DNA of 64,000 bases. Source: a virus. The stretch covers positions 1 through 64,000 of the IMG/VR virus record IMGVR_UViG_3300045988_166195, one strand, 5' to 3'. Of this stretch, positions 19,517 to 64,000 are shown piece by piece. Below the pieces are notes generated by a model. It was not told the origin of the DNA. It worked only from the letters and a program-made list of their open reading frames with translations, and made no database searches. Numbering within the stretch: position 1 is the first letter of the stretch; each line of letters starts with the position of its first letter. A program made the translations under genes and the position numbers.

Positions 19517-20839
19517 ATGACTTCTGCAATCCCTGCCTCTCTGAACACGATGTCGCTTCTTGGCGGTATCGATGTCGGTAACGGCTACGTCAAGGGTTTG
19601 GTGCGTGGTGAGCGTACCGACAAGGCTGGTAAGCCTGTCATCGACACGATCGATCTGCCCAGTGGCGTGGCTCTGATGACCAGGCCGAACTCGTTGCCGA
19701 AGCCTGATGTCGAGGCGACGGAGGTGTGTGCCGATGACTTCTACAACGACCTCGATGTGTCGTTCTCGTCCCCGATGGTGAGCAACACGTATCGCCACCT
19801 GTTCGGCAAGCGATCGCTTACTGCCAATGGCGCGTTCGATGAGTTTAACGTCGTGGGCCGACGCTCGAAGGCTGAGCAGGAGCTGTCCAAGGTGCTGATC
19901 CTTGGGTGCTTTGCCGCGAAGGCGCTACGTGACTACGTGGCTGTTGCGAAGGCTCTGCCCGCATCGGAGCTCATCGTCGACGCGCGTGTGGCTGTCGCTC
20001 TTCCGATCGATGAGTATATGCGTCATCGCACCAGCTACAGTGCTGAGTTCATGGGTGCAACGCACCTGGTGACCGTGCACAATTTCGAGACGCCCGTTGT
20101 GGTGCGCATTACGTTCCGTGATGTGGTGGTGATGGCCGAAGGTGCATCCGCGCAGTGGGCCATCACGGAGAAGGGCGTGCCACTCATGCAGGCGATGCTT
20201 GCTGACGTGCGTTCTCGTGGTCTCGCACTGGAAGGTGTCACGGCGGAAGATGTTCTCGCAGCCCGTAATACGATCGGTATCGACATCGGTGAGGGAACGA
20301 TTAACTTCCCGGTGTTCACCAACGGTAAGTTCAACGCAGACGCCTCTGTGACGTTCGGTGAAGGATACGGCACTGTGCTGACCCGTGCGTTGGAGTCCAT
20401 GGACGCGGAAGGCTTCCACACTGGTTTCACCAGCCGGAAGCAGCTGGCGGATTTCCTCCAGCGTGAGCCCTCGCCGTTGAAGCGCAACTTCTACAACAAG
20501 GTGCGTGCCTACGTCGATCGTGAGATCGAGTTCTTTGCACGAGCTGCATCTGACCAGTTCGGTCGCGTGCTCAGCGTCGTTGGTGCCACAACAGAAGTCG
20601 TGTTCGTGTTCGGCGGTGGCTCTGGCCCCGTCAAGAACGCGCTGTACCCGCTCTTGCTGAGCAAGGTGGCGGAGATGAACACCGAGGACGCAATGCCGGT
20701 TCTCTACCTGGATGCGTCGTACTCGCGGTCTCTGAACCGCGAGGGTCTGTACTCGATCGCTCAGGCGTCTGCTGCCAAGTCCAGCAAGCCTGCGAAGCGC
20801 TCTGCTGGTAAGAACAACAGCAAGAAGAACGGAGAGTGA
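19517..20839 (+). CDS. Actin-like segregation ATPase (ParM/Alp/StbA superfamily)
   Basis: Phosphate-1 'GIDVGNGYVKG', phosphate-2 'GIDIGEGTINF' and adenosine 'VFVFGGGSG' motifs of the actin/Hsp70 fold. Confidence 0.75.
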   Translation: MTSAIPASLNTMSLLGGIDVGNGYVKGLVRGERTDKAGKPVIDTIDLPSGVALMTRPNSLPKPDVEATEVCADDFYNDLDVSFSSPMVSNTYRHLFGKRSLTANGAFDEFNVVGRRSKAEQELSKVLILGCFAAKALRDYVAVAKALPASELIVDARVAVALPIDEYMRHRTSYSAEFMGATHLVTVHNFETPVVVRITFRDVVVMAEGASAQWAITEKGVPLMQAMLADVRSRGLALEGVTAEDVLAARNTIGIDIGEGTINFPVFTNGKFNADASVTFGEGYGTVLTRALESMDAEGFHTGFTSRKQLADFLQREPSPLKRNFYNKVRAYVDREIEFFARAASDQFGRVLSVVGATTEVVFVFGGGSGPVKNALYPLLLSKVAEMNTEDAMPVLYLDASYSRSLNREGLYSIAQASAAKSSKPAKRSAGKNNSKKNGE

Positions 20840-20843
20840 CCGG

Positions 20844-22052
20844 ATGTCTACGTCTACGAGTCCATGGGATGATGCTTTGCGCCGTTACAGCGCGCGCGAG
20901 CACACGCATGATGACATCGTGACTGAGTCTGGTGTGGCGGCAGCTGATGTGACAGCTGCCGCCACCGGCGCTGCTCTGCCTAGTTTCGATGACATTGTGA
21001 ATGGCGATGGGACTAGCCCTGACAAGACTCAGTCTAAGGCCGGGTCTTTGGTCGTTCCGTCGAGTCTCGATGAGGTGCTGCATGATGCTGGGGTTGCCCA
21101 CGGTAAGCAAGGCACGCAGAACCCGAAGAACAAGCGGAGCAAATGGCGCGCTGCTCTGACAGCGATCGTGTGGCTTATCGTCATGAGTCTCATCTGTGGT
21201 GGTCTCTACCTGATCTATCGCGCACATGATGAGGCTCAGGTCGAGGAAGAGCTTCCGGTGCCTGCTCAGACGTATCAGGATGAGGAAGTCTCTACTGTGC
21301 CTGTCGAGGCTACTGATGATGTGCTCACCCACGAGTGGGATGTTGTCAACGCGGATTCGGACCAAGGGTCGAACACGTGGGAGGTGAACACCGAGGATTA
21401 CAGGATTGACACGATGTCGGTTGCTCGTATGGCTCCTGGATCTGTGTTCATCCCGGAGTCCGGCATCTACATGGAGCTTCAGGGGTCTGATTCGTTCGAG
21501 GCGTCGAACTATGGCGATCTTCAGACGATTCATGTGCCGACCAACGTGCACCGAGGTGTGTGGTATTCAGCTGGAGCACCTCTCACTGCATCTGATACTG
21601 GAGTTCTCACCGGCGTTCGTCCGGGGTTTGATACACCACAGTCTTCTGCTCTGCCTTCTTCTACCTCTTCTTCCGATACCGTGCAGTCTGGAACACAAAC
21701 AAGCTCAGCACACGCAGTGAGTATGACGGGTGGTGAGGGAACGACGTTCATCGCATCCCATGTGGCGTGGACAAAGCGTCATCGTGGGGCTCTGTACACC
21801 ATGGCGACGGATGTCTCTCAGAATGAGTTGATCTGGGTGAAAGGCTTTGATGGATCGCTGTCCACGTGGCGCGTGAGCGGCATGTGGGTGGCTGAGCATC
21901 AGGCGTTCCCGGAGGACTATTTCAGCGCCACTGGGCCGCGTCGGTTGGTGCTTACCACGTGTGGTGGCCGTGTGAACAGCTACGGTTACTACCAGCAGAA
22001 CGTGTTTCTGGTGGCAGAACCTGTGGCTCTGGAATCAGCGATGCAGCAGTGA
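20844..22052 (+). CDS. Membrane-anchored sortase-like transpeptidase (likely class E, specific for LAxTG)
   Basis: N-terminal TM helix. His in 'IASHVAW'. 'LVLTTCGG' resembles the sortase TLxTC active-site motif. Neighbouring genes carry LAxTG motifs. Confidence 0.5.
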   Translation: MSTSTSPWDDALRRYSAREHTHDDIVTESGVAAADVTAAATGAALPSFDDIVNGDGTSPDKTQSKAGSLVVPSSLDEVLHDAGVAHGKQGTQNPKNKRSKWRAALTAIVWLIVMSLICGGLYLIYRAHDEAQVEEELPVPAQTYQDEEVSTVPVEATDDVLTHEWDVVNADSDQGSNTWEVNTEDYRIDTMSVARMAPGSVFIPESGIYMELQGSDSFEASNYGDLQTIHVPTNVHRGVWYSAGAPLTASDTGVLTGVRPGFDTPQSSALPSSTSSSDTVQSGTQTSSAHAVSMTGGEGTTFIASHVAWTKRHRGALYTMATDVSQNELIWVKGFDGSLSTWRVSGMWVAEHQAFPEDYFSATGPRRLVLTTCGGRVNSYGYYQQNVFLVAEPVALESAMQQ

Positions 22053-45080: not shown

Positions 45081-47207
45081 GTGGTATCTATGGCCAAAAA
45101 TGAGAGTGTCACGAATGCGATGACGGATGAGTCATCGCCGTGGGGTATGGCGACCTCTCGCGTTCGCGAAGCGAGTGCCTCGATGGCTGCTGATGAGGCG
45201 CGCGATCGTGCTGCGTCGCAACAGCGAAGCTTGAAGGGTATGTCTCGTAAGGAGCGCAAGGCGTTGTTTGCTAAGACCAACGGTGCAACGTTTAAGGAGT
45301 ATGCACATCTCTTGGCAGTGAAGCCTCGTCAGGGCTATGTGTTCCACTCGGACTACTTCGAGATTGATGGGAACGTCGGGTGTATCCTGGGCTACTTCCA
45401 CGACGAGAGCGCCCGTGATGAGCTCCCTCCGTTCTGGGGTGTGAACCTCATTCCGTATCTGCCTCAGAACGTGACGGCTGTTCTGCTCCAGCAGGTCTCG
45501 CGCGTGACTGAGTCCTGGCTCAAGGACAAGATCAAGGCGTCTGAGCGCCTCGATCGTCTCGACGAGCAGGAGCAGAGCGAGAACGGCACGAAGTCGTCCC
45601 GTCGCAAGGCATCGAAGGTGTCTGCTGAGGTTGAGCAGGCGATCGCTGAAATCCAGGACGGCGCTGCCTACCTGTCTGTGCACTACCGCATTCTCTTGAA
45701 GGCTCCCTTGTTGGAGATCCTCGATGATGTCATCGATGATCTGCGTCATCGGTACATCGATAGCGTTGGCAACCTGTCGATCGCTGCACATCCTGGTCTT
45801 CAGCGCCAGGAGTTGGCGACGCTGTTTGCCCCTAACGCCTCGAAGAAAGGCAAGGGTTTCCACTTCACCTCGACTGAGCTGGCGGGTGCGTTCAACCTTG
45901 TCACCAACGGTCTCAATGACCGTGGTGGTGAGTTCGTCGGCTACATGGTCGGTGACGTGAACAACTCGGGCGTCCTCATGGACGTTGATCAGTACAGTCA
46001 TCACGTGGTGGTTGCCGATGATGAGAAGTCTCGCGCTGAGATCATGAACAAGGCTCAGGTTGCCGATATGTGGGCATCGAAGATCTCACAGGCGGCTCTG
46101 ATCAACAACAAGCGCGTTGTGCACATCATTCTCGATGGCGCTGATCTGACGGGTGTTCTCGGTCCTCGTATGGACACGATCACTGCGCGCATCGACATGT
46201 CGCAAGGTGATGTCAACCCCTTTGAGGTCTTCGGTGATCGCAAGGATCAGCTCTCACTGTTTTCGACTCACCTGGAAAAGATGGTGCTTCTGACCGAGCA
46301 GGTGTATCAGCCTACTGATGACGATCGGACGATCATCCAAGGTCAGCTGAAGGACACTCTGGAACAGTTCTATGTGGATCAGAACATGTGGGCGCGTAAC
46401 GCGAAGGACAATCAGGATCGTTTGCGTCTTGTGGGCGTGCCTCACGATCAGGTACCGCAGCTGAAGCTGTTTGTCACGTATCTCGATCAGCGCTATAAGG
46501 CGCTGACCGGCAGGGCTAACCGTGACGATGAGATGGTGCACGCATACTCTGTGCTGTCTTCTGTCTTTAAGTCCATGCTGAGTGCAAACGGTGACTTGTT
46601 CAACGTCATCACGAACGATGTCATTGATGGAACCCAAAAGGCTCGTCGCGTCATCTATGACTTTTCGGCTCTGGTGGATCGTGGGAAGGGTGTTGCGATG
46701 GCACAGCTCGTCAATGTGCTGGCGTTCGCGGCTTCGGCCTTGGGCGAAGGTGACACACTGATCATCCACGGTGCTGAGTTGATCGATAAGGGTGTGAAGC
46801 CGTACATGACTGAGCAGTTCCAGCGCCTCTTCCGTCGCAATGGCCGTGTCGCCCTGTGCTACAACGGCGTGAAGGCGATGCTGTATGACTCGGAGTTCAA
46901 CCACTTCGATGAGGCTGATTGGACGGCGCTCGGTGCGATGAGCGATGCTCTCGTGCCTGTGTATGAGAAGAAGCTGGCCAAGCAGATTCCTGTCGACATG
47001 ACGAAGGTCATCACTCAACGAGGTGAGGGGCTCACATTCTTGCGACGAGGGACGGTCAACGTTGTCTTCAAGCGTGACCTTGCGCTCGGTCTCCATGCTC
47101 ACGTGCGCGACATTACCTACGATGGAAGTGTTGCTCCCGGTCGACACAGAGGATCTGTGATGGCCCGGCAGAAAGCCCGCAAAAACGCTGAAAGGAAGAA
47201 CAAGTGA
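45081..47207 (+). CDS. Large conjugation protein, tentatively VirB4/TraE-like but without a recognisable Walker A
   Basis: Size and position (after VirB3-like, before VirB6-like) and 'HFTSTELAGAFNL'. At the expected P-loop position the sequence reads 'HHVVVADDEKS'. Likely start ATG at 45090. Confidence 0.35.
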   Translation: MVSMAKNESVTNAMTDESSPWGMATSRVREASASMAADEARDRAASQQRSLKGMSRKERKALFAKTNGATFKEYAHLLAVKPRQGYVFHSDYFEIDGNVGCILGYFHDESARDELPPFWGVNLIPYLPQNVTAVLLQQVSRVTESWLKDKIKASERLDRLDEQEQSENGTKSSRRKASKVSAEVEQAIAEIQDGAAYLSVHYRILLKAPLLEILDDVIDDLRHRYIDSVGNLSIAAHPGLQRQELATLFAPNASKKGKGFHFTSTELAGAFNLVTNGLNDRGGEFVGYMVGDVNNSGVLMDVDQYSHHVVVADDEKSRAEIMNKAQVADMWASKISQAALINNKRVVHIILDGADLTGVLGPRMDTITARIDMSQGDVNPFEVFGDRKDQLSLFSTHLEKMVLLTEQVYQPTDDDRTIIQGQLKDTLEQFYVDQNMWARNAKDNQDRLRLVGVPHDQVPQLKLFVTYLDQRYKALTGRANRDDEMVHAYSVLSSVFKSMLSANGDLFNVITNDVIDGTQKARRVIYDFSALVDRGKGVAMAQLVNVLAFAASALGEGDTLIIHGAELIDKGVKPYMTEQFQRLFRRNGRVALCYNGVKAMLYDSEFNHFDEADWTALGAMSDALVPVYEKKLAKQIPVDMTKVITQRGEGLTFLRRGTVNVVFKRDLALGLHAHVRDITYDGSVAPGRHRGSVMARQKARKNAERKNK

Positions 47208-47239
47208 ACAAGAACCATGAAAAGAAAGGAGAGAGTTTG

Positions 47240-50200
47240 ATGCTCACAAGCCGTGTTCGAGCAGTTCGGGGCTTCACCCGTGCGATGTCGTTTGTCGCAG
47301 CTGTGCTCATTGCCGTCTTTGGTCTCACCATGATCGGCGGAAGTGCGTACGCTGACAAGGACAAGGCTGAGAAGTATGACTTCTACACGCTCTCGTCTAA
47401 CGTCACTGCCTACTTCTCCGATGCGACTAAGCCTGGTGAAGGCGATGGTCTCTCGGCGGATGAGGGCTGGACGACGATCGCTCAGAATGCCAGTGAGGGT
47501 GGAAACTTGCTGGGTTACGGAGACGATGATGTGTCGAGCTTCTCCGGCTGGCTCGTTTCTAAGGCCACGGGTTCATCGAACACGGTGGGTTATGACTCGT
47601 TGAAAGTTCGCGACAACGATTCGAGCAGTGCAAACTCCGCGTATAGCGGCGTTCTCGCATATGCGCAGTATGGCTCGCTGTTGAACGCGTTGGGTCTTGA
47701 TTCCACGTCGACGGGTCTGGGGCTTCACTTCCAGAACATGGCGTTTGGTTCCATCATGGCCCTGCTGTATCTGCTCGCTGGTGGTATCGATACGATCTTC
47801 TCGGCTGTGATCTGGCTGCTGGAGACGCTTAACCCGTTCAAGCTCTTCTTCTCTGCGATCTCTGCATCGAGCACGGCAATGGCCAACGGTATGACCGGTG
47901 GACAGGGTGTGCCGGTGTGGATGCAGAGCCTCGATACCTGGTTCAGCGGCTGGTATCAGGCGCTTGTGAACCTGTCATGGACTGTGCTCATTCCGCTCTT
48001 CCTCTTTGTGTTCATCATCTCGTCTCTCATGTGGAAGAAGGGCAATGCTCTCGGTGGCTTGAAGAAGCTTGTCATCCGCGTGCTCTTCCTCGGTGTGGGT
48101 CTGCCTCTTATCGGTTCGATGTACACGGCATCGTTGGGTGTCATGAAGGACGCGACAGCGGGTGCTGGTATGGGTGCGACGCGCGTTGTGATCTCCACGT
48201 TTGTCGACTTCGAGAACTGGGCGAAGAAGGACCGCCTTGCTGTGCCGGACAATGCCACGCTTCAGTGGGATTCGTCTAAGCAGGCTCCGACCGGCGCATC
48301 TGTGAACAAGCTGCGTCAGACGACTGTGGCGATCAACAAGCTTGCGAACTCGGGTGCATTCTCGTCTGTGTCGGATATTGATGTGTCTGGCCTTGGCTCT
48401 ATCTCCACGGAGGCTGCGAAGGCAGATACGACATCGAGCGGCGGTCTGAAGGATTTCACCTATGTCGCTGCCATGGAGATGCTTCTGCGCTACACGACTG
48501 CTCAGTCGTACCAGGCATCTGACTTTGATACGGCCATTAAGGGTCGTATCAGCCAGCAAGCATCGAGCGGCCAGGAGCAGGTCAAGAGCTGTGCGACGAC
48601 CTGGTTCAATGTCCAGGCCGATGGTTCGACCAAGGCTGATGGCAAGGGTTGTTCTGCGACCAAGGCATCGGATAATCCGGTGCTGAAGGTTCGTGAGGGA
48701 TCTGGTCTCCAGGCGTCCGGTGAAAGCGGCACCATTACGTTCACGACGAGCGGCGATAAGTACGCTGGTGACTGGGTGATGCTCGGTGAGAACTTCAACG
48801 GTGCGAACTTGTCTGCGCTGTCCATGTATAACTACTTGAACACGACGTTCGACAAGAACTCGGCAACCACCTACTCGTCGAGCAACGCGGTGTCGTCTGC
48901 TACTCGTGAGTACCACAACTCTGTGAACCTGGTTGGTTCTGCTGGCGTGAGCTGGTTGTACTGGGTGAACGGCGCTGTGACGCTGCTGTGCTTCATCGTG
49001 CTTGGCCTTGGTTACGCATTCGGTATGTTCACCGGTGCGATCAAGAACTCGATGCACATCATCACGGCGGTTCCGTTCGCAACGCTGGGTTCTATGGCAG
49101 GTATCGCGAAGGTGGTTATCTACACCTTTACGATGATTACCGAGATCATCGCAACCATGTTCATCTACCGTCTCGTCCAGGAGATCATTCTGTCGATTCC
49201 GAGCATCTTCGAGGGCGGCTTGGAACATATGTTCAACTCGATGGGTGGTTTCGGTGTCTACCTGAAGAACAGTGGTAACGTCACGCTCTTTACGTCGCTG
49301 GTGTCCACTGTGCTGTTGATTCTTCTGACGTGGAAGATGATGCACTTCCGTGGTGCCTTCGTGAAGGGTCTCAATGAGGCTGTCACGAAGATTGTCGATA
49401 AGTTCCTGGACACGAATGTCGCGCCTCCCGCTGGTGGCGGCAAGCTGATGCCAGCTCTGGCCGGTGGTGTTGGCGCAGGCGTTGGCTCTGCTGCTGCTAA
49501 CCGTCTGATGAGCGGTCGTGGTGGTCTGGGCTCTGGCTCGGGACGCGGCGGTGCATCGAGCGGTCTCATGGCTGGCTCTGGCGGTATTCAGGATGGAAAC
49601 GGCGGTGTCTCGGGTATGGGCGGTGGATCGATGCTATCCATCAACGGTACCGATGGCCCTGGCCCGGATGAGATCGGTCCCGGTGCATCCGGTGGTGATC
49701 CCAACGCTCCTGGTGGCAGTGGCGGCGGTTTGCTGCTCAGCGACGGGTCGGGCGGTGTGAACGTCGACAACAGCACAAGCAACGACAACTCCAGCGCACT
49801 GATGACATCCGAGTCGGATCGTCAGCTCGCAAGTGAAGTTGATGCTCGTGGTGGTTTGTCTGAGCCAGCTCAGCTTGAGGCTGGTCCGCAGGCTGATGCA
49901 GCTGCATCAAGCAAGGTCGCCAACAACGCCGATGACGCTATGAGTGAGACGGCAGGGTCGATTCAGTCGACGATGGACGCTCATAACAAGGCTGATAAGG
50001 CGCGTGTTGACCAGGCAACGTCCGGTGTGAAGGCTGTGTGGCACGGTGGTAAGGCCGCTGCTAAGGCTTACTCCGGTGATGTCGCAGGTGCTGCTCAGGA
50101 TGGCCAGAAGGCCCTGGGTGATGTCCAGAGCGCTCAGACCAAGGGTCAGGAGGCGAAGGCTCACCGTCAGTCGGCTGAGGCACCGCGTCCTGTTCAGCCA

Positions 50201-50512
50201 GCGCGTACAAGCCAGCCACAGTCTCAGCCTCAGCGTGGTGCTGTGGGTGCTCAGCGTCAGCAGGTTCGTCAGCCTCAGGCGCAGCCTCAGCAGCAGGCAC
50301 CGACGCAGACGCAGGCTCCAGCACAGACTCCTGCGCCGTCTCGACCGGCACCGTCCCGTGGTGGTAGTTCTCGCTCGCTGAGTGCGCCTCGTCAGGGCGC
50401 GTCGCAGATGCCTGTGAAGGGTAGCTCTCAGGGTGCATCGGGTAAGGCGGGCAAGGGCCTGAAAGGCGTGAAGCCTTCGGGTGGTTCTTCGATGCCGCCG
50501 ATGCCCTCGTGA
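47240..50512 (+). CDS. Polytopic membrane protein, VirB6/TcpH/ConG-like, with Gly/Gln/Ala/Pro-rich disordered C-terminus
   Basis: Signal peptide, six or more hydrophobic helices, large extracytoplasmic loops. Strong Shine-Dalgarno GAAAGGAGAG before the ATG at 47240. Confidence 0.5.
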   Translation: MLTSRVRAVRGFTRAMSFVAAVLIAVFGLTMIGGSAYADKDKAEKYDFYTLSSNVTAYFSDATKPGEGDGLSADEGWTTIAQNASEGGNLLGYGDDDVSSFSGWLVSKATGSSNTVGYDSLKVRDNDSSSANSAYSGVLAYAQYGSLLNALGLDSTSTGLGLHFQNMAFGSIMALLYLLAGGIDTIFSAVIWLLETLNPFKLFFSAISASSTAMANGMTGGQGVPVWMQSLDTWFSGWYQALVNLSWTVLIPLFLFVFIISSLMWKKGNALGGLKKLVIRVLFLGVGLPLIGSMYTASLGVMKDATAGAGMGATRVVISTFVDFENWAKKDRLAVPDNATLQWDSSKQAPTGASVNKLRQTTVAINKLANSGAFSSVSDIDVSGLGSISTEAAKADTTSSGGLKDFTYVAAMEMLLRYTTAQSYQASDFDTAIKGRISQQASSGQEQVKSCATTWFNVQADGSTKADGKGCSATKASDNPVLKVREGSGLQASGESGTITFTTSGDKYAGDWVMLGENFNGANLSALSMYNYLNTTFDKNSATTYSSSNAVSSATREYHNSVNLVGSAGVSWLYWVNGAVTLLCFIVLGLGYAFGMFTGAIKNSMHIITAVPFATLGSMAGIAKVVIYTFTMITEIIATMFIYRLVQEIILSIPSIFEGGLEHMFNSMGGFGVYLKNSGNVTLFTSLVSTVLLILLTWKMMHFRGAFVKGLNEAVTKIVDKFLDTNVAPPAGGGKLMPALAGGVGAGVGSAAANRLMSGRGGLGSGSGRGGASSGLMAGSGGIQDGNGGVSGMGGGSMLSINGTDGPGPDEIGPGASGGDPNAPGGSGGGLLLSDGSGGVNVDNSTSNDNSSALMTSESDRQLASEVDARGGLSEPAQLEAGPQADAAASSKVANNADDAMSETAGSIQSTMDAHNKADKARVDQATSGVKAVWHGGKAAAKAYSGDVAGAAQDGQKALGDVQSAQTKGQEAKAHRQSAEAPRPVQPARTSQPQSQPQRGAVGAQRQQVRQPQAQPQQQAPTQTQAPAQTPAPSRPAPSRGGSSRSLSAPRQGASQMPVKGSSQGASGKAGKGLKGVKPSGGSSMPPMPS

Positions 50513-52702: not shown

Positions 52703-52759
52703 GTGTGGGACGGGACGAAAGAACGGATAAGAGCTCGAATGAACGAAAAGGAGATAGGT

Positions 52760-54640
52760 ATGAAACCAGAGGGGATTGAAAAGCTCCCTCAGAGTCAAGA
52801 TGCCGGTATTGAACCGTCTGCTCAGCCCAATGAGCCTGTGGACACGGGAACTGACACAGGAGCGAACGGCACCGATGTGATGGGTTCTGGTGGCGCTGAG
52901 CCCGGTGGCGGCGGTTTGCTGGGTGACGGTATCCAGGGAGGCCAGAACAAGAGTGGCGCGAGTAAGGCTGCGACCGGAGCTGCTGCTGGAGCAGCGGCTC
53001 CTGCTGCGGCGCAAGCCGCTGCGCTGACTGTGTTTCTCAATTGGCTCAAGACGGTGATGATGTCGATCATGGCAGCGGCTCAGTCACTGTGGTCTGCGAT
53101 CACAGGTGCTGTTGTTGCAGCAGCAAAGGCTGTCGTTGGTTTCTTCACAGGAGCCGGTGCAGCTGTTGCCAGCGCACTAGGTGGAGCTGTGTCGGCGGCG
53201 ACCGCGACTGTTGCAACGGTTGTGGCAACGGCTGTTGGCGCGGGTGCTGTTATTGCTGGTGGCGCGGTTGCGTTGCGTGATGGCGACATGGCTGCTCGCA
53301 GCGATGGGTTGCTAGAGCCATGCACTGTGGCTGTTGAAAACGCAGCAAAGGCAGCAGACGGCGCTGTTGGTGATGTATCTGCCAAGACCGAAGAGAATGC
53401 CAAGACTGTGTACTCTGTGCTCTCTGCCTGGGGTATGTCGGATGAGAACATTGCTGGTGTTCTGGGCAACTGGTCGCACGAGTCGGGTATCGATCCAACC
53501 AGTGTGGAGACGATCTTTGACGAGAAGTTCACGATTGGTCCTCGTAAGCAAGACGCTGAGGCCAAGGGCTTCAAGATTGCACAGGTGGATCCTGCGTATT
53601 CGGCACGTTTCCCTGCGATCGATCTCATGGGTATTGGTCTGGGTCAGTGGACAAACGGTCGTAACGCGCTGCTCACCGAGTACGCACAATCGATCGGTAA
53701 GCCGTGGTCGACGCTGGAAACCCAGCTCGGCTTCATGATTTCAAAGGACGATCCGGCTCGCGTGGCTCAGGTGAAGGCTCTGATCGACAACTCCGAGGGT
53801 GGTAGTGTCTCTGCGTCGACCTCGTACTTCCTCACCAAGTGGGAGGGCATCAACGATGGTACGCTCGGCTCTCGCGAGAGCGCTGCTGGTACCTGGTTTG
53901 CCAAGATGGGCGGCTGGGAGAAGAACAAGTCTCTCGCTGATTCGATTTTGGCTCAGTCGGGTAGTGCTGTGACTGGTGCGAACAGTAGCTCCGTGGCTGC
54001 TGCTGCCAGCAAGTGCAAGTCGCACGGTGGCAAGGTGGATAACTCCACGATGGTCAAGGCTGCGATCTCTTACGCATGGCCGTACAACGACGATGGTAAG
54101 GGTAACGACGGTACTGACATCTACAAGTACCTCCACAAGGAGGTGCTCGGTGAGTCGGATAACTACTTCGCCTCGTGCGACCGTACTGTTGCCACCGCTG
54201 TTCGCTGGTCTGGTACTGACGATACGTATCCTGCTGGTGGCGTGTCCAACCAGCTAGAGTATCTTCAGGGCCAGGGTGGCTCGAAGTGGACCAAGATCGA
54301 TTACAACGGCGATAAGTCCAAGCTTCAGCCCGGTGACATCCTCCTGCGTACGACCGGCGGTGTGTCGCACACGGTCATGTATGTGGGCGAAGACTCTGTG
54401 AAGGAGGTCTGGGGCGAGGGTAACTACGAGCCTCAGGGTGAGATTGTCTCGGGTTCGCTCAACGATCGTGCTCCGACAGTGGGCCAGTTCTACACCGGTT
54501 CGACCGGTCTCGATACGGACTATGTCGCGTATCGAAACACCACGAAGGAGTCTTCCTCGAAGTTTGCATCGGTGACGGTTCCGTCCACGATGCAAAAGGG
54601 TCAGGGCGATAAGAACTCTCGTCTGACCCCTGGTCCGTGA
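52760..54640 (+). CDS. CwlT-like bifunctional cell-wall hydrolase: TM/Ala-Gly-rich anchor, lysozyme-like domain and C-terminal NlpC/P60 peptidase
   Basis: 'GNWSHESGIDP' lysozyme-like block. NlpC/P60 Cys 'FASCDRTV' and His 'GVSHTVMYVG'. AAAAGGAGA Shine-Dalgarno before the ATG at 52760. Confidence 0.7.
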   Translation: MKPEGIEKLPQSQDAGIEPSAQPNEPVDTGTDTGANGTDVMGSGGAEPGGGGLLGDGIQGGQNKSGASKAATGAAAGAAAPAAAQAAALTVFLNWLKTVMMSIMAAAQSLWSAITGAVVAAAKAVVGFFTGAGAAVASALGGAVSAATATVATVVATAVGAGAVIAGGAVALRDGDMAARSDGLLEPCTVAVENAAKAADGAVGDVSAKTEENAKTVYSVLSAWGMSDENIAGVLGNWSHESGIDPTSVETIFDEKFTIGPRKQDAEAKGFKIAQVDPAYSARFPAIDLMGIGLGQWTNGRNALLTEYAQSIGKPWSTLETQLGFMISKDDPARVAQVKALIDNSEGGSVSASTSYFLTKWEGINDGTLGSRESAAGTWFAKMGGWEKNKSLADSILAQSGSAVTGANSSSVAAAASKCKSHGGKVDNSTMVKAAISYAWPYNDDGKGNDGTDIYKYLHKEVLGESDNYFASCDRTVATAVRWSGTDDTYPAGGVSNQLEYLQGQGGSKWTKIDYNGDKSKLQPGDILLRTTGGVSHTVMYVGEDSVKEVWGEGNYEPQGEIVSGSLNDRAPTVGQFYTGSTGLDTDYVAYRNTTKESSSKFASVTVPSTMQKGQGDKNSRLTPGP

Positions 54641-58074: not shown

Positions 58075-60414
58075 GTGTCGATACCGATGAGCTTGAAGCA
58101 GAGCATTGTTGTTGTCAACGAGTTCAGTGTGCCAACCCCAGGCTCGGGCAAGCATGGTGGTTCTCGTGGTGGCACACCCGGTGCTTACGTGATGCGCTAT
58201 ATGGCTCGTAAAGGCGCAACTGAGCCTGTGACGCCTATTCGTCGACGCAACACCGAGGATTTCATCCTGCGTTACATGGCACGAGAGAGCGCCACAGAAA
58301 AAGCCGTGTCGAGGCATCAGCTCAAAGACAACGTGCTGCATGTGTCCGGTCAAGGCGGCGTTGCATTCGGTTATGGTCAGCCGTCGTTGTCTGATGAAGG
58401 CGTGCGCCGTGCCAGTGCTGACATTCAGCGTTTGTTCGACAAGGGGCACACGGTGATGAAAACCGTGCTGTCTTTCAGCCCTGAGTATCTTCAGGAGACG
58501 GGCGTCGTCCCCAAGGGCTTCGTCGCACAGAACAAGGGCGATTACCGAGGTCATATCGACCAGATGCGTCTGCGTATGGCAATCATGCATGGTTTGGAGC
58601 GTATGGGGCATCGTTTTGATGACCTGCGCTACGTGGGCGTTATTCAGGTTGATACGTTGCATGTTCACTGCCACCTTGCCATGGTTGATGCTGGGCTCGG
58701 TCGACGTGTGCGTACAGAGAAGGGCATGCAACAGAAGGGTAAGCTCACCAGCACGGATATATCGCTCTTGCGACGCGGTGTTGACTCGTGGCTTGATGAG
58801 AACCAGCATGTGGCACACATGTCCAGTGCCGTGGGCTATGAGCGCATGAACGTTGCTGCGTTCGTGAAGCGTTGGGCTCATGAGAAGGTGCTCGATGAGT
58901 CACTACCCCAGTTGTTGTTGGCGTGTCTGCCTGCTGACAAGACGCTGTGGCGTTACGGGTCTCATCGACCGGAGATGCGACGTGCGAACAGTGTTGCGAC
59001 AGAGCTCGTCACTGAGTTGCTCGATCGCCTTGGTTCCCCCATGGGATCAGCCATGATCGCTGTGGAGACATATGCGAACCGTCGTGCTCATCGCGAAGGT
59101 CTGAGCGATCAGGAGAAACGAGCGTTGATTCGTCGTGGCCATGAGACGATTATGGAGCGCAGCGTCAATGGTCTGTACCAAGTGTTGCAATCTCTTCCAC
59201 CTGAGGCTCTTTCCGTGCGTACGCCGATGCTCACTGTGATGAGCCAGGATGTGGAGACGCTCATGGCAACGCAATCTCAGCGCATGAAGACCCAGGCTCA
59301 GGGTATGAGCGTTGATGATGATCTAGTGGGATTCTCACTGCGCCTTCGATCGTATGGAGCTCGTCTACGGGAACATGATACACAGCGTGAGTATTGGCGT
59401 ATGCGTGCTGCTGACTGGGAAGCCGGTCTTCAGGCAGGCGCAGTGTCCCCACAGTCCGAGGTGATGCACAAGCTGTATCTGGAGGAAGAGGAATACCACG
59501 CTCGTTGCGTCAGTAAGTACCGATCGTTGCTCGGGCCACTAGCGGTAGGTGTTGACGGGCAGCGTCAGGATGACGACTCGTGGAAAGACGTGTTGGAGTC
59601 GGTGGATAAGCGACGCGAAGCAGTCGTTGGTCTCGAAGCTCTGCTGGCAGATCGCTCGATTCCGAAGATGAAGGATGCTGATGAAGCTGAAAAGCTTGGT
59701 GTTGCTGCTCACGGCGTGAGCGGTGGACGCTTGCTGGTAGCTGGTGGGAAAGCTGGACGGACCACTTTGAAGCAACGCTTGGAGCGTGCTCGCGCATCGC
59801 TGGCTTCCCGAACAGCCGATCTTGTGTCGATGCTGTCCGGGAAAGGACTTGTATTGCAAGCGATACAAGACGATGCGCGCGAGGATGATCAAGGTAAGCA
59901 AAGCGATGCTGTCACCGTGGTTCCAGGGGAGCGATGGGCGTTGTCTCAGACGAAGGGTATGGATCTGCACGACGTGCGTTCCGATACTGTTGTCGACATG
60001 GCGCTTGGTCGCCATGTTGCCGATCGGTTCGTTACCTGGGCGCGCAGAAGGCGACAGCTTGTTGATGACGCTCAGGCGTATCTGCATGAGTCTGGTCAGG
60101 AAGACATTGTCGAGATGGTTCTTCCCCTCGATGATGTACGGCGTATGAATCGTGTTGCTGATGATCTGGAACGCCAGATGTCAGCGAAGAAGACCGGGGA
60201 TCTCATTCTCACGAGTGCTCTTAGTGATGTGGTGCCAGTAGCGAAACGTATTCGCCGTAGCGCAACAGTGACGTTTGATGAGGGTCTTGCCGGTATTGTT
60301 CGTGAGAACACATGGCGCGAGACTGAGCGTTTGGTGCCTCAACTGGAACAGGTGTTGGAAGAGAGCGACACGCAGTCTTCTGATGCCTCGATGGATTCCA
60401 TGGAATTGGGATGA
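58075..60414 (+). CDS. Conjugative relaxase (MOB-type HUH endonuclease, PF03432-like N-terminal domain)
   Basis: His triad 'VDTLHVHCHLAMVD' and N-terminal Tyr-containing 'GAYVMRYMARKG'. Long helical C-terminal extension. Confidence 0.6.
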   Translation: MSIPMSLKQSIVVVNEFSVPTPGSGKHGGSRGGTPGAYVMRYMARKGATEPVTPIRRRNTEDFILRYMARESATEKAVSRHQLKDNVLHVSGQGGVAFGYGQPSLSDEGVRRASADIQRLFDKGHTVMKTVLSFSPEYLQETGVVPKGFVAQNKGDYRGHIDQMRLRMAIMHGLERMGHRFDDLRYVGVIQVDTLHVHCHLAMVDAGLGRRVRTEKGMQQKGKLTSTDISLLRRGVDSWLDENQHVAHMSSAVGYERMNVAAFVKRWAHEKVLDESLPQLLLACLPADKTLWRYGSHRPEMRRANSVATELVTELLDRLGSPMGSAMIAVETYANRRAHREGLSDQEKRALIRRGHETIMERSVNGLYQVLQSLPPEALSVRTPMLTVMSQDVETLMATQSQRMKTQAQGMSVDDDLVGFSLRLRSYGARLREHDTQREYWRMRAADWEAGLQAGAVSPQSEVMHKLYLEEEEYHARCVSKYRSLLGPLAVGVDGQRQDDDSWKDVLESVDKRREAVVGLEALLADRSIPKMKDADEAEKLGVAAHGVSGGRLLVAGGKAGRTTLKQRLERARASLASRTADLVSMLSGKGLVLQAIQDDAREDDQGKQSDAVTVVPGERWALSQTKGMDLHDVRSDTVVDMALGRHVADRFVTWARRRRQLVDDAQAYLHESGQEDIVEMVLPLDDVRRMNRVADDLERQMSAKKTGDLILTSALSDVVPVAKRIRRSATVTFDEGLAGIVRENTWRETERLVPQLEQVLEESDTQSSDASMDSMELG

Positions 60415-60550
60415 GATTCGCCTTGACATCCAGAGTTTCTCTCGTTTATGATGAGAGAGCGCTACACGGGACAAGCCCGTGTATGTGAGAGGGCTGATTA
60501 ACCCTCGACCGACATCCTGCGGGATGAGATAAGAAAGGAGGGTGGTCATT

Positions 60551-61114
60551 ATGGCTACTCTACGTGGTAAGGGTTCGATGAAGTCGGTGGAACTGGTCGT
60601 TGTGGAGTATCCCAACGCTCATTCCAAGGATGGCAAGCGTGCCTTCCTCGACGTGATGGTTCGACCTGTTGAGGGTGCTGCCCCTCAGCGAGTTCCTCAC
60701 CTGGTTTCGACCAAGAAGGAACTCGACGGTAAGACCGTCTACGATCATCAGGCTGGCTACAGCGCTTCTCAGCGCGATGCGTTCGTTGCAGCTGCGGGCG
60801 ATAACATCGTCCAGATGCCGGAGCGCAACGGTCGACCTGGTCCGACTGTTTACGCCATTCAGGCGGATGTCATGTCCGCTTCTGGCAAGCAGACCGGCTT
60901 GGTCATCAACTCTAAGACGGTGAAGCCGTCCGAGTTGGAGCCGATCGACGAGAACATTCTCGATACGATCTACGCCGCTTCCAAGGCTGCTGCTGAGGCC
61001 GACAAGGCCCGCAAGGCTGCTGAGAAGGAGGCGCAGAACGAGGCTGCCGCCGAGGCCCAGGTTTCCGAGCCTGAGGTCGAAGAGGTTGCCGAGATCGACG
61101 AGCCTGAGTTCTGA
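60551..61114 (+). CDS. Hypothetical protein with Lys/Ala/Glu-rich acidic C-terminus
   Basis: GAAAGGAGG Shine-Dalgarno before the ATG at 60551. Confidence 0.5.
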   Translation: MATLRGKGSMKSVELVVVEYPNAHSKDGKRAFLDVMVRPVEGAAPQRVPHLVSTKKELDGKTVYDHQAGYSASQRDAFVAAAGDNIVQMPERNGRPGPTVYAIQADVMSASGKQTGLVINSKTVKPSELEPIDENILDTIYAASKAAAEADKARKAAEKEAQNEAAAEAQVSEPEVEEVAEIDEPEF

Positions 61115-61168: not shown

Positions 61169-61259
61169 TTCCTGTTTCTGCTCTGTTTCTATAGAAGTCA
61201 CTAACTATGCTAGAATGACTGGTACACCAGCCTAATCGATTGAAAGATGGAGGAAAGAT

Positions 61260-64000
61260 TTGTTTGATGATGAGCGTTTGAACGATAAGTACCCGATGCT
61301 GCGAGACTTTGCGGCTAAGCTTGCGCCGCCTGCTCGTGACATTGTGGGGCGAGAGAGCGAGAAGATCTCGCTCATGAGCTCCCTGGCTCGTCCTGAGATG
61401 TGTAACGTGATCTTGCTGGCCCCGCCTGGCACCGGTAAAGCTCACCCGAATGATGAGTTGATCCCTGTTGCCGATGAGCGTGGATATGTCCGTGTTGGTT
61501 TGCTCAAGGTGGGCGATCGTGTCTTTGATGAGCACGGTGAGCCTGTGACCGTGACGGGTGTGTTTCCTCAGGGGATCAAGCGTGAGTACGTCGTGGTGAC
61601 GAACCATGGCGACCGTGTGCGCTGCAACGATGAGCACCTGTGGACGGTGCGATCGGTTGGTGATGCAGAAGGTGTGCAGCAAACGATGTCACTGCGTGAG
61701 ATCATGGACGCGGGACTTATTGGTTCCGATGGCGCACCCATCTGGCAGCTTCCTGCTTCTGGTGCGCTTGTGCGACAGAGCCGTCTTCTCCCGGTTGACC
61801 CTTATGTGTGTGGTGCGCTGCTGGGCTGGGGCGTTCGCATCGATGAGCGTGGGTACGTGACCATTCCTCATGAGATGCCCGATGAAGTTTTTGTTGCTAT
61901 CGAGGACCACATGGGGTGGGAGCGTGTGTATGGCAGTGGTGACAGTGTTGAGCGTTCGACGTTTATCAACCGTGCGACAGGTAAGCGTCTGACACCTGAT
62001 GAGGTGATGACTCATCCGGTGATGACGAGTGTCATCGTTAAGCCGGAGGATCAGCGTCATATTCCGTACACGTACATCACCAGCTCGGTGAAGGATCGAG
62101 AGACTGTGCTACGAGCGCTGCGAGACAGTGAGTCGTACCGTTTGTCCCAAGGGACTGCATGGGTTGTTGATGCTGATATGCATGAGCTAGAGCGTTCTCT
62201 CGATGTGACTGGCGATATGATCGCTGAGGTGATCGACACCGATCGCGAGATTGAGATGACGTGCATCATGGTCGACTCTGAGACACACCTGTATCAGGTG
62301 GGTCGAGGCCATGTTGTCACGCACAACACGGTGCTCGTGCAGTCCTGTATGCAAGATGATCCAGAGCGTATTTACCTGGAAGTCGACATGGCAAAGATGA
62401 TCGCTGACTTGTCGAACCCTGAAGAGATGGCTGCGCGCTTGAAGGCTCTGTTTGATGAGGCTGAGAGTTTTTCTAGGTCCGAAGGTCGAGAGATCGTGCT
62501 GTTCATCGACGAGTTCCACCAGGTGGTGCAGCTGTCTGCTGCTGCCGTGGAAGCGTTGAAGCCGTTGCTTGCTGCTTCTGGATCTCGGGGTATTAAGGTT
62601 ATCGCTGCGACCACGTATGACGAGTTCAACGCTCATATCGCATCGAATCTGCCGCTTGTTGAGCGTCTCGCGCGCATTAACATTCCTCAGACGAATCGTG
62701 AGGTGACGATCGCCATCCTGAAGGGTATGGCGAAGAAGTACGGTGTCGATGAGGGGATCTTTGATGATGCTCTGTATGAGCAGATCTTTGAGTACACGAA
62801 CAGGTACGTTCCTGCCTCTGTGCAGCCTCGTAAGTCGATCCGTGTGCTCGATGCCATGGTTGGTCGTCATCGGTATCTGGGCGAGCGTATGGACAAGACG
62901 CTGTTGGCAACCGTGCTGAAGATTGAGTTCGGTGTTGAAGTGGAGATCGATGTCAATGCTGCTGAGATCAAGGCTGAGCTGGATAAGCGAGTGTTTAGTC
63001 AGGACTTTGCCACCACGTCGATTGCTCGTCGACTCCAGTTGTGCGTCGCTGGTCTGAATGACCAGAGCAAGCCTATGTCATCGCTGTTGTTCACCGGAGC
63101 GACAGGTGTGGGCAAAGCCACCACAGATTCTACTCGTGTACCAGTCTTTTCTGAGGACGGTTCTGTGGCATGGAAACTTGCTGGTGACCTTGTTGCCGGT
63201 GACTACGTGTTTGCTCGCGATGGCTCTCCGACGAAGGTACTCGGGGTGTTCCCTCAGGGGGAACGCGACGTGTATCGAGTGACAATGGGGGATGGGCGCA
63301 TTCTTGATGTGTCTGACAATCATCTGTGGGCGGTTTACCCAAATCGGCAATCGCGTGAGCAAGGTCCAACAATCTATTCGACCGAAACTCTGATGAACAA
63401 GGGTATCGTGTCGAAGTTGAACAATGGTCGTCAGGGGATGAAGTATGTTGTTCCAATGAATAAGCCAGTTCAGTGGCCTACGGTTGATCTCCCTGTGGAT
63501 CCTTACGCACTTGGAGCTTTGATTGCCAATGGTTCGCTCACTGAGAAGGCGCTTGCCATCTCTTCGGATGATGAGGAAACGGTTGCTCGCGTTGGTCAAG
63601 CTATTGGTGCTGCGTCATGGGATCAGAATGGTAACAATTACTCTTGGTACTTCGGTACAGGAGAGGTATGGGGCGATGACATGAAGCGACGGATTCAGCT
63701 CGCGGATGTGTTTGTCGGTTCGCTTTCTGAACTGATTGGTGTGAAGTCGCCTCAGCGATTTATCCCTGAGCAGTATCTACATTCGTCAATCGAGCAGCGA
63801 TGGGCGTTGGTTCAAGGGTTGTTCGATTGCGATGGCTCGATTGGTGCGCGTGATGGTGGTCGTTACAACGTTTCGTATGCTACGGCTTCGAAGCGTTTGG
63901 CCGAGGATGTTCGCATTCTTCTGTTCTCCCTTGGGGTGCCGTGTTCCGTTAACCAGCATGTGCGCGAAAGGAACGGTAATACCCAGGTTGAGTATGAGGT
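61260..64000 (+). CDS. ClpB/ClpA-like two-NBD AAA+ ATPase lacking the N-domain, interrupted by two inteins (3' partial; runs off the window)
   Basis: Translated by hand since it is absent from the ORF track for lack of a stop. TTG start after GGAGGAAAG. Exteins give 'RDIVGRESE...LLAPPGTGK|TVLVQS', 'IVLFIDEFH', 'VIAATTYDEF', 'LVERLARINIPQTN' and NBD2 'LLFTGATGVGK|...'. Confidence 0.65.
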   Translation, partial: MFDDERLNDKYPMLRDFAAKLAPPARDIVGRESEKISLMSSLARPEMCNVILLAPPGTGKAHPNDELIPVADERGYVRVGLLKVGDRVFDEHGEPVTVTGVFPQGIKREYVVVTNHGDRVRCNDEHLWTVRSVGDAEGVQQTMSLREIMDAGLIGSDGAPIWQLPASGALVRQSRLLPVDPYVCGALLGWGVRIDERGYVTIPHEMPDEVFVAIEDHMGWERVYGSGDSVERSTFINRATGKRLTPDEVMTHPVMTSVIVKPEDQRHIPYTYITSSVKDRETVLRALRDSESYRLSQGTAWVVDADMHELERSLDVTGDMIAEVIDTDREIEMTCIMVDSETHLYQVGRGHVVTHNTVLVQSCMQDDPERIYLEVDMAKMIADLSNPEEMAARLKALFDEAESFSRSEGREIVLFIDEFHQVVQLSAAAVEALKPLLAASGSRGIKVIAATTYDEFNAHIASNLPLVERLARINIPQTNREVTIAILKGMAKKYGVDEGIFDDALYEQIFEYTNRYVPASVQPRKSIRVLDAMVGRHRYLGERMDKTLLATVLKIEFGVEVEIDVNAAEIKAELDKRVFSQDFATTSIARRLQLCVAGLNDQSKPMSSLLFTGATGVGKATTDSTRVPVFSEDGSVAWKLAGDLVAGDYVFARDGSPTKVLGVFPQGERDVYRVTMGDGRILDVSDNHLWAVYPNRQSREQGPTIYSTETLMNKGIVSKLNNGRQGMKYVVPMNKPVQWPTVDLPVDPYALGALIANGSLTEKALAISSDDEETVARVGQAIGAASWDQNGNNYSWYFGTGEVWGDDMKRRIQLADVFVGSLSELIGVKSPQRFIPEQYLHSSIEQRWALVQGLFDCDGSIGARDGGRYNVSYATASKRLAEDVRILLFSLGVPCSVNQHVRERNGNTQVEYE
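61440..62327 (+). mobile_element. Intein 1 (296 aa) inserted in the NBD1 Walker A between GTGK and T; begins with Ala, ends ...VVTHN; degenerate LAGLIDADG-like motifs; Trp/Cys/Thr pattern as in class 3 inteins
   Basis: Removing 61440-62327 restores 'APPGTGKTVLVQ'. Block B 'NDEHLW', block F 'EMTCIMVD', block G 'GHVVTHN|T', and 'YVCGALLGWGVRI'. Confidence 0.6.
63117..64000 (+). mobile_element. Intein 2 (partial; end beyond window) inserted in the NBD2 Walker A after GVGK; contains LAGLIDADG homing-endonuclease motifs
   Basis: 'GATGVGK|ATTDSTRVPV...', block B 'SDNHLW', 'LGALIANGSL' and 'LVQGLFDCDGSI'. Confidence 0.55.

Follow-up and report, generated by a model that had tools for sequence, protein, structure and literature searches.

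The stretch of DNA analyzed here, hereafter called the window, comprises the 64,000 nucleotides at positions 1 to 64,000 of the IMG/VR virus record IMGVR_UViG_3300045988_166195. The gene at its right end (61260-64000, plus strand, partial) codes for a two-ring Clp/Hsp100-like AAA+ ATPase whose two Walker A motifs, one in each nucleotide-binding domain (NBD1 and NBD2), are both interrupted by a long in-frame insert. In a preliminary description of this DNA, made from the letters alone, the inserts had been taken for inteins. The results below support that view and indicate that the gene very probably encodes a precursor with two class 3 inteins of the same family, placed between the Lys and the Thr of the Walker A motifs of NBD1 (site 1) and NBD2 (site 2) of a Clp-like ATPase of a conjugation module.

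Organization of the interrupted ATPase gene

The reading frame is open from a TTG codon at 61260 to the end of the window, 913 codons without a stop or a frameshift. An in-frame TAA (61233-61235) and a GGAGG Shine-Dalgarno sequence about 8 nt 5' of the TTG are found upstream, and the N-termini of homologues (MFDDDRLN) coincide with this start. The N-extein (amino acids 1-60, 61260-61439, plus strand) ends in the NBD1 Walker A motif APPGTGK (61419-61439), as determined by alignment with ClpB ('GEPGVGK') and with intein-free alleles. The sequence LLAPPGTGK, ending at 61439, is directly followed by 296 amino acids that begin with Ala and end with VVTHN (intein 1, 61440-62327, plus strand), and then by TVLVQS. 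The latter opens a middle extein of 263 amino acids (62328-63116, plus strand), delimited by Pfam matches and by the same two alignments, the first residue of which (Thr+1, 62328-62330) completes the Walker A motif of NBD1. This extein contains a Walker B motif (VLFIDEFH, 62496-62519), an AAA lid, a linker and the NBD2 Walker A motif GATGVGK (63096-63116). After LLFTGATGVGK, which ends at 63116, the second insert (intein 2) starts with ATTDS at 63117 and continues past the end of the window, so that its N-terminal 294 of about 370 amino acids are present (63117-64000, plus strand).

Excision of the inserts restores a known type of protein. When insert 1 was removed in silico the Pfam AAA match improved from 4e-4 to 2.5e-11 and a contiguous AAA+ module was obtained. 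The insert-1-free sequence matched the ClpB structure 6dju of the PDB with an E-value of 9e-27, PGTGK↓T (the arrow marks the insertion point) falling on PGVGKT and GATGVGK on the NBD2 P-loop. Natural alleles devoid of inteins are carried by plasmids pGS01 of Rhodococcus fascians (590 amino acids) and pGKT2 of Gordonia sp. KTR9; both encode AAA family ATPases that are 53% identical to the deduced spliced product and align to it without gaps across both GK↓T junctions. The deduced spliced ATPase has about 591 amino acids, and full-length homologues of the precursor about 1240-1290. The layout given in the preliminary description was thus recovered in the translation: a ClpB/ClpA-like double-NBD protein starting at TTG 61260, the 296-residue insert between LLAPPGTGK and TVLVQS, the second insert leaving the window with its LAGLIDADG motifs, both inserts starting with Ala and carrying HLW in block B, and contiguous GxGKT motifs once the inserts are taken out.

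A total of 1797 homologues of the ATPase were retrieved. The protein has two AAA+ modules with Walker A and Walker B motifs and a D2-small domain, all features of Clp/Hsp100 proteins, and matched the Pfam families AAA, AAA_lid_9, AAA_2 and ClpB_D2-small as well as PDB ClpB (9e-27 for NBD1 and 1.4e-27 for NBD2). The whole open reading frame (ORF) also matched the NCBIfam ClpA and ClpB models (3e-33 and 1e-28), far under their curated cut-offs and only over the stretch between the inserts. In the alignment with ClpB the exteins lack an N-domain and an M-domain, and no IGF/IGL loop for docking to ClpP is obvious. The pore-loop aromatic motifs of NBD1 (KYRG) and NBD2 (GYVG) were sought in the same way and neither is present in the window-type ATPase: ClpB KYRGEFE is aligned to SNPEEMA in NBD1 (about 61560-61600), which puts SNPEE at the pore-loop position, and the NBD2 pore-loop segment GAPPGYVGYEEGG of ClpB corresponds to an alignment gap, NBD2 being taken from the homologue P0001. 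Since the pore-loop Tyr motifs are missing and the scores are far below the NCBIfam cut-offs, we describe the protein as Clp-like by fold and do not file it as a ClpA, ClpB or ClpC orthologue. Judged by its sequence, it may thread no polypeptides at all.

Splicing motifs of intein 1 and intein 2

Intein 1 has Ala as residue 1, a block B (VRCNDEHLWTV, 61617-61649) with His66 (61635-61637) and Trp68 (61641-61643), a block F (IEMTCIMVD) with Cys275 (62262-62264) and a block G (VVTHN) ending in Thr294-His295-Asn296 (62319-62327). A phmmer search of the PDB with insert 1 retrieved a gp41-1 intein engineered to carry the Trp-Cys-Thr (WCT) signature (6riz, 2.6e-5) and the DnaB-1 inteins of Mycobacterium chimaera and Mycobacterium smegmatis (Msm) (6rix and 6bs8, about 2e-4), the matches spanning the N-terminal as well as the C-terminal splicing blocks. 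In the alignment with Msm DnaB-i1, His66, Trp68, Cys275 and Asn296 fall on His65, Trp67, Cys118 and Asn139, residues which were defined experimentally (PMC5222942). In agreement, the top 50 matches of a Foldseek search of the PDB with a low-confidence model of insert 1 were all inteins or HINT domains.

Intein 1 has a decayed endonuclease. Remnants of LAGLIDADG motif 1 (GALLGWG, 61788-61835) and motif 2 (ALRDSES, 62106-62135) can be recognized, and about 75 amino acids are missing compared to relatives of 371-375 amino acids. Another Cys residue, Cys62 (61623-61625, in RCNDEHLW), lies four residues ahead of the block-B His and is invariant in the site-1 inteins of the window type. A redox switch like that formed by Cys48 and Cys118 in Msm DnaB-i1 was considered for intein 1 and rejected, because the redox-sensing Cys48 has no counterpart at the aligned position and Cys62 sits elsewhere.

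Intein 2 also starts with Ala. Its block B (LDVSDNHLWAV, 63303-63335) contains His at 63321-63323 and Trp at 63327-63329, and two LAGLIDADG motifs follow: motif 1 (GALIANGS, 63489-63536), where Asn takes the place of the catalytic residue, and motif 2 (GLFDCDGS, 63801-63839), with an intact DCDG. Insert 2 matched Pfam LAGLIDADG_3 (1.7e-11) and NCBIfam GyrA_w_intein, described as 'intein-containing GyrA' (4.5e-14). When completed from homologue P0001 it matched the class 3 inteins of the PDB (M. smegmatis and M. chimaera DnaB-1 and the WCT-engineered gp41-1) with phmmer E-values of 3e-7 to 5e-7. From homologues 85-90% identical its C-terminus is expected to read ...MTCIYVDNDEHLYQAGDFIVTHN↓TEITKQLA.

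Conservation of the class 3 signature

Class 3 inteins are defined by a non-nucleophilic residue 1 co-varying with Trp B:12, Cys F:4 and Thr G:5, with Thr or Ser at +1, and most of them are located in ATPase P-loops (PMC2807308). The junction between the Walker A Lys and the following Thr or Ser is the 'classic' P-loop intein site (PMC5050341). Intein 1 carries this whole set of residues inside the window (Trp68, Cys275 and Thr294), as had been read from its block-F Cys and T-H-N terminus in the preliminary description; in intein 2 the Trp lies within the window and the block-F Cys and the Thr are taken from homologues. The C-terminal junctions are VVTHN↓T for intein 1 and, in homologues, IVTHN↓T for intein 2.

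Conservation was determined by dissecting 120 closely related homologues together with 83 loci from genomes or plasmids, which provided about 130-147 intein copies per site. The His-x-Trp of block B and the terminal His-Asn were found in all site-1 copies (131/131) and at site 2 in 147/147 and in 146/146 complete copies, respectively. Every site-1 copy (131/131) and all but two of the complete site-2 copies (144/146) showed the pattern formed by T-H-N and the block-F Cys. Those that depart from it are duplicate loci (L068 and L072) of a Lachnospiraceae metagenome-assembled genome (MAG), which end in SHN and keep the Cys in a context (MVCFYVD) missed by the search pattern. The class 3 assignment agrees with the published definition and holds across all homologues examined, and the Hint homology is supported for both inserts by PDB matches in which the splicing blocks are aligned.

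Residue 1, on the other hand, is variable. At site 1 it is Ala or Leu in 131/131 copies, and at site 2 it is Ala (58 copies), Cys (27), Ser (25), Phe (17), Leu (13), Gly (5) or Gln (2). Within one cluster of at least 75% identity it varies between Ala, Ser and Cys, as expected for a residue that is not a nucleophile and intolerable for one that is. The site-2 alleles with Cys1 or Ser1 resemble the minority of WCT inteins that retain a nucleophile at residue 1.

Occupancy and exchange of the two inteins

All four states of occupancy occur among the 83 loci. Fifty-three have neither intein (Nocardiopsis, Arthrobacter, Kribbella, Streptomyces and others), 19 have site 2 only (mostly Streptomyces, plus Amycolatopsis and a Parvibacter MAG), three have site 1 only (all Streptomyces) and seven have both.

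Three types of intein were found at site 1. The window type (291-309 amino acids) has decayed LAGLIDADG motifs (GALLGWG and ALRDSES) and the deletion of about 75 amino acids, the intact type (371-375 amino acids) has GALIGDG and GLMDTDG, and a type similar to DnaB-i1 (462 amino acids) is present in Streptomyces. The occurrence of this DnaB-like lineage indicates that site 1 was invaded at least twice. At site 2 the inteins are 358-387 amino acids long, apart from one 299-amino-acid copy in the Parvibacter MAG. In 130/147 site-2 inteins LAGLIDADG motif 1 reads ANG or GNG, with Asn instead of the catalytic acidic residue, and motif 2 keeps its Asp (DCDG or DTDG). The Asn-bearing site-2 inteins may act as natural nickases, may be inactive and spread by recombination, or may have a non-canonical active site.

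The site-2 inteins have been swapped between otherwise very similar genes. Among 3375 pairs with exteins at least 90% identical, the site-2 inteins were less than 65% identical in 1009 pairs and the site-1 inteins in none. Extein identity was correlated with intein-1 identity (r = 0.63) and not with intein-2 identity (r = -0.24). The closest genome-derived locus (L048), binned to an uncultured Actinomyces MAG, has another site-2 allele, starting with GTLVNE, and its 92% DNA homology to the window stops precisely where intein 2 begins, at 63117. Divergent inteins in near-identical genes and this sharp end of homology indicate that site 2 holds an exchangeable cassette.

Both inteins and exteins are under purifying selection. 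The ratio of nonsynonymous to synonymous substitution rates (dN/dS), determined between the window and two related loci, was 0.11-0.12 for Hint-N, 0.07-0.09 for Hint-C and 0.19 for the endonuclease remnant of intein 1, 0.08 for intein 2, and 0.05-0.06 for the exteins.

Relationship between the two inteins

Intein 1 and intein 2 are related (E = 1e-15), with 27% identity. Of the nucleotides flanking the two junctions only about 21/48 are shared, mostly in the GGn...GGnAAr↓ACn codons, and a common DNA target of two homing sites was rejected. A recent intragenic duplication was also rejected, on the 27% identity and the site-specific clades described below.

A profile-free search of a 50%-identity representative library with intein 1 retrieved 8826 related proteins at E ≤ 1e-3, and 218 intein copies from the best 150 of these were used for distance-based, neighbor-joining trees. 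Nearly all the 218 copies lie at ...GK↓X...THN↓T/S in many unrelated ATPases, and in dozens of separate clusters the protein is again the Clp-like host, filled at both sites. Two proteins of the sample, P0184 (1376 amino acids) and P0224 (1252 amino acids), have class 3 inteins in canonical ClpB/C-type NBD1 P-loops (GEPGVGK↓...↓T.VVEGLA), indicating that bona fide Hsp100 chaperones can also be hosts. Their junctions follow the pattern NPVIVGEPGVGK↓...THN↓T(S/A)(V/I)(V/I)EGLA and their inteins belong to the same class 3 family.

In the trees the inteins clustered mostly by site (F1 = 0.89 each). The Clp site-1 and site-2 inteins grouped together, away from those of other hosts, with F1 values of 0.94 for all columns, 0.87 for the HINT columns and 0.82 for the homing endonuclease columns, compared to 0.68 expected for a random set of the same size. 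Bootstrap values were 90-94% at F1 ≥ 0.8-0.85; with all columns F1 ≥ 0.85 was reached in 94/100 replicates. The DnaB-like site-1 inteins lie outside this group. This evidence for a Clp clade is moderate, since the copies were selected for their similarity to intein 1 and the trees were built from distances. A transfer between the paralogous P-loops is moderately supported as, at most, an ancient event followed by site-specific evolution. The suggestion in the preliminary description that an intein had been duplicated or had homed from one P-loop to the other is retained in this ancient form; as a recent event it does not agree with the 27% identity, and cutting at the homologous position is of limited weight given that GK↓T/S is a generic target and that site 1 was invaded at least twice.

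A serious alternative, which we regard as possible though somewhat doubtful, is that the two inteins arrived independently from a pool of P-loop class 3 inteins, such as those of phage terminases or DnaB, without any transfer between the sites. GK↓T/S is the family's generic insertion point in many unrelated ATPases, both inteins match PHROG families of intein-bearing terminases, primases and helicase loaders, and the 462-amino-acid lineage reached site 1 of Streptomyces independently. The low identity of the pair and the little DNA shared by the flanks of the two sites also fit independent arrivals. The neighbor-joining trees argue against them, with the moderate strength stated above, by joining the Clp site-1 and site-2 inteins apart from those of other hosts.

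Genetic context of the ATPase gene

The ATPase gene is preceded on the same strand by a gene for a MobL-family relaxase (58075-60414, plus strand; Pfam MobL, 1e-62) and by a conserved small ORF of 190 amino acids (60542-61114, plus strand, from the ORF list) which has no Pfam match. The same synteny is found in a Streptomyces plasmid and in a 119-kb contig (L004) with 88-91% nucleotide identity to the window, where the small ORF has a 187-amino-acid counterpart. Downstream of the ATPase gene this contig carries an ORF of 761 amino acids and then a TraG/VirD4-type coupling protein of 1348 amino acids. The order relaxase, ATPase, coupling protein recurs on plasmids of Streptomyces, Rhodococcus and Gordonia. 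Further along L004 (21396-23813), beyond the coupling protein, an ORF of at least 1816 amino acids gave faint matches to RNA_pol_Rpb2_6 and RNA_pol_Rpb1_2; on this basis a plasmid-borne RNA polymerase-like gene of the single-chain, two-barrel kind is conceivable.

Other genes of the window concern cargo and maintenance (jointly at 19517-22052, 15363-17996, 41750-43963, 52703-54640 and 310-2019). They code for an actin-like ALP_N segregation protein, a sortase, an antigen I/II C2-domain adhesin, a type IA topoisomerase with Toprim_Crpt/DUF3945 repeats, a Phage_lysozyme2-domain protein that is likely a cell-wall hydrolase for mating, and a GH16 glycosidase. Two large ORFs (45081-47207 and 47204-50512) had no Pfam match.

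The element is conjugative, as proposed in the preliminary description, and plasmid-like. The relaxase, segregation protein, sortase, adhesin and topoisomerase genes in the window and the coupling protein downstream in the relatives argue that it is not a phage. It probably comes from an actinobacterium living in the human mouth or gut, host assignment by MAG binning being weak. A phage origin was considered because the nr label of one homologue (P0050) reads 'MAG TPA: DNA packaging protein [Herellevi...]', and was rejected on the plasmid-type gene content. The DNA of the region gave no match in a phage collection and only three weak matches in plasmids, all in the exteins, which led to the intein-free alleles. 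With both inteins, matches to PHROGs labelled 'terminase large subunit' (phrog_19299; 5e-16 and 1e-39) were obtained, and the exteins match an 'ATP-dependent protease' PHROG. Since the terminase PHROGs include intein-bearing terminases, the P0050 label is probably a mis-annotation caused by the intein. Public annotations of homologues are 'AAA family ATPase', 'ClpA' and 'DNA packaging protein'.

The host gene had also been called unusual, as an N-domain-less Clp ATPase on a conjugative element. The lack of an N-domain is confirmed, but there is nothing unusual in such a gene: conjugative plasmids of Gram-positive bacteria commonly carry Clp-like ATPases of about 590 amino acids without this domain, and intein-free relatives with about 33% identity are found on staphylococcal, lactococcal and Ligilactobacillus plasmids.

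Proposed mechanism and alternatives

By the class 3 route, the block-F Cys (Cys275 in intein 1) would attack the peptide bond ahead of residue 1 and form a block-F thioester branch, from which the N-extein would be transferred to the +1 Thr. Cyclization of the terminal Asn would then free the intein, and an O-N shift would re-form ...GxGK-T.... Two intact P-loops in an ATPase of about 591 amino acids would be present only once both inteins had spliced, and no binding or hydrolysis of ATP is expected at an interrupted site of the precursor. That both P-loops are restored by class 3 splicing is, with high confidence, what we infer from the sequence; the occurrence of splicing, the order of its steps and the inactivity of the precursor are assumed by analogy with the homologous Msm DnaB-i1 and mycobacteriophage Bethlehem DnaB inteins. 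At the DNA level the inteins are mobile cassettes. The one at site 2 carries a LAGLIDADG endonuclease and is exchanged among near-identical host genes, and the endonuclease-less intein at site 1 of the window would persist because its precise deletion is the sole harmless form of loss.

Several points weigh against this interpretation. Splicing of these proteins is a prediction from their sequences, and the end of intein 2 falls outside the window. Insert 1 on its own had no significant match in Pfam, and its AlphaFold2 (AF2) model has a mean confidence (pLDDT) of 63, below 50 at the termini, with the active-site geometry outside its reach. The dN/dS values come from two pairwise comparisons only. 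Furthermore, the Asn of motif 1 in most site-2 inteins means that exchange at site 2 could be ordinary homologous recombination between plasmids and not homing.

It is conceivable, although unlikely, that the inteins are more than selfish passengers and form a two-key post-translational lock on the conjugation ATPase, and that, in addition, an intein long ago jumped from one paralogous Walker A site to the other. Each AAA+ ring would then become competent for ATP only after its own class 3 intein had spliced, and the reactive internal Cys in both inteins could place splicing, and with it plasmid transfer, under redox or metal-ion control, as shown for Msm DnaB-i1. Natural alleles in all four states of occupancy are available for testing this.

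We consider it very improbable that the inserts are dead inteins, derived from class 1 ancestors by loss of Cys1 or Ser1, within a non-splicing protein that is deficient in ATP binding and either a pseudogene product or altered in function. Ala at residue 1 of both inteins, the decayed endonuclease of intein 1 and the site-2 alleles starting with Cys or Ser, which can be read as the ancestral class 1 state, are compatible with that history. However, the full signature of WCT, His-Asn and Thr+1 is invariant or nearly so in hundreds of diverged copies, the splicing blocks have a dN/dS of about 0.1, and inteins with the same signature splice experimentally (PMC2807308, PMC5222942). The strong purifying selection on the exteins, with their Walker A and Walker B residues kept, would also be unexpected if the P-loops were permanently disrupted.

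Also very improbable is the class 2 (KlbA-like) route, in which the +1 Thr would attack the N-terminal junction directly without a block-F branch: Ala1 and a hydroxyl nucleophile at +1 fit it equally well, but class 2 inteins by definition lack the WCT residues conserved here (131/131 site-1 copies; T-H-N in 144/146 complete site-2 copies), the WCT inteins tested cannot do without the block-F Cys, for which the +1 residue is no substitute, and class 3 structures are the best sequence matches.

Comparison with known systems

Class 3 inteins at the P-loop GK↓T/S are well described, so the present case is a known phenomenon in a new host and not a new mechanism. In the searchable literature, supplementary tables aside, no description was found of a class 3 intein in a Clp/Hsp100-type host or of a tandem AAA+ protein whose paralogous P-loops both hold class 3 inteins related to each other, an absence which is not proof of novelty. 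The repertoire of class 3 inteins thus gains a widespread host that is abundant in metagenomes, the Clp-like ATPase of the relaxase/coupling-protein module of Gram-positive conjugative elements. The family offers a clean natural data set, in which two paralogous P-loops are interrupted at their equivalent Lys↓Thr by class 3 inteins of common descent and all four states of occupancy occur, and the substitutions at residue 1 (Ala, Ser, Cys, Leu, Gly, Gln or Phe) amount to a natural mutational scan that supports the class 3 mechanism. One and the same gene combines a live-looking, swapped endonuclease cassette with an intein whose endonuclease has decayed. The inteins also distort gene length and domain calls of these conjugation ATPases, and their homology to intein-bearing phage terminases probably explains a mis-annotation ('DNA packaging protein', 'Herelleviridae'). 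Together these features make the gene a natural system for the study of intein evolution and possibly of conditional control of conjugation.

The closest parallel is provided by the DnaB-1 inteins of M. smegmatis, Mycobacterium leprae and M. chimaera (PDB 6bs8 and 6rix), which are likewise inserted between the Walker A Lys and the Ser or Thr (FGVGK↓ST). They, too, have Ala1, a block-B His-x-Trp and a block-F Cys with a catalytic role, and their T-H-N precedes a Ser or Thr. The 462-amino-acid site-1 intein of Streptomyces visibly belongs to the DnaB-i1 lineage (LLPLGTPIPTPSGW...ADHQW...). In contrast to the ATPase studied here, DnaB is a RecA-fold replicative helicase with one P-loop, and DnaB-i1 is a mini-intein without an endonuclease. 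With the DnaB intein of mycobacteriophage Bethlehem and the other WCT inteins described by Tori et al. (2010; PMC2807308), the inteins of the window share all sequence criteria of the class and the preference for P-loops.

Among known class 3 inteins, that of Burkholderia vietnamiensis IcmO (Bvi IcmO; PMC5222942) also has a host ATPase belonging to a module for plasmid transfer or secretion. That host is plasmid-borne and resembles type IV coupling proteins, the site is ARSLGF↓C with Cys at +1 instead of the Thr found here, and the insert is a mini-intein. As for the host, the exteins align with the Hsp100 proteins ClpB, ClpC and ClpA over NBD1, the lid, NBD2 and the D2-small domain, but the window ATPase differs from them in having no N-domain, no M-domain and neither of the pore-loop Tyr motifs, and its gene lies between those of a relaxase and a coupling protein.

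Msm DnaB (i1 and i2) and haloarchaeal MCM are likewise ATPases with more than one intein, each of which is present or absent independently among relatives (PMC6195587, PMC10643990). In those proteins the inteins occupy non-homologous sites and, in DnaB, belong to different classes, whereas the two inteins of the Clp-like ATPase are both of class 3, are related to each other and interrupt equivalent residues of paralogous P-loops.

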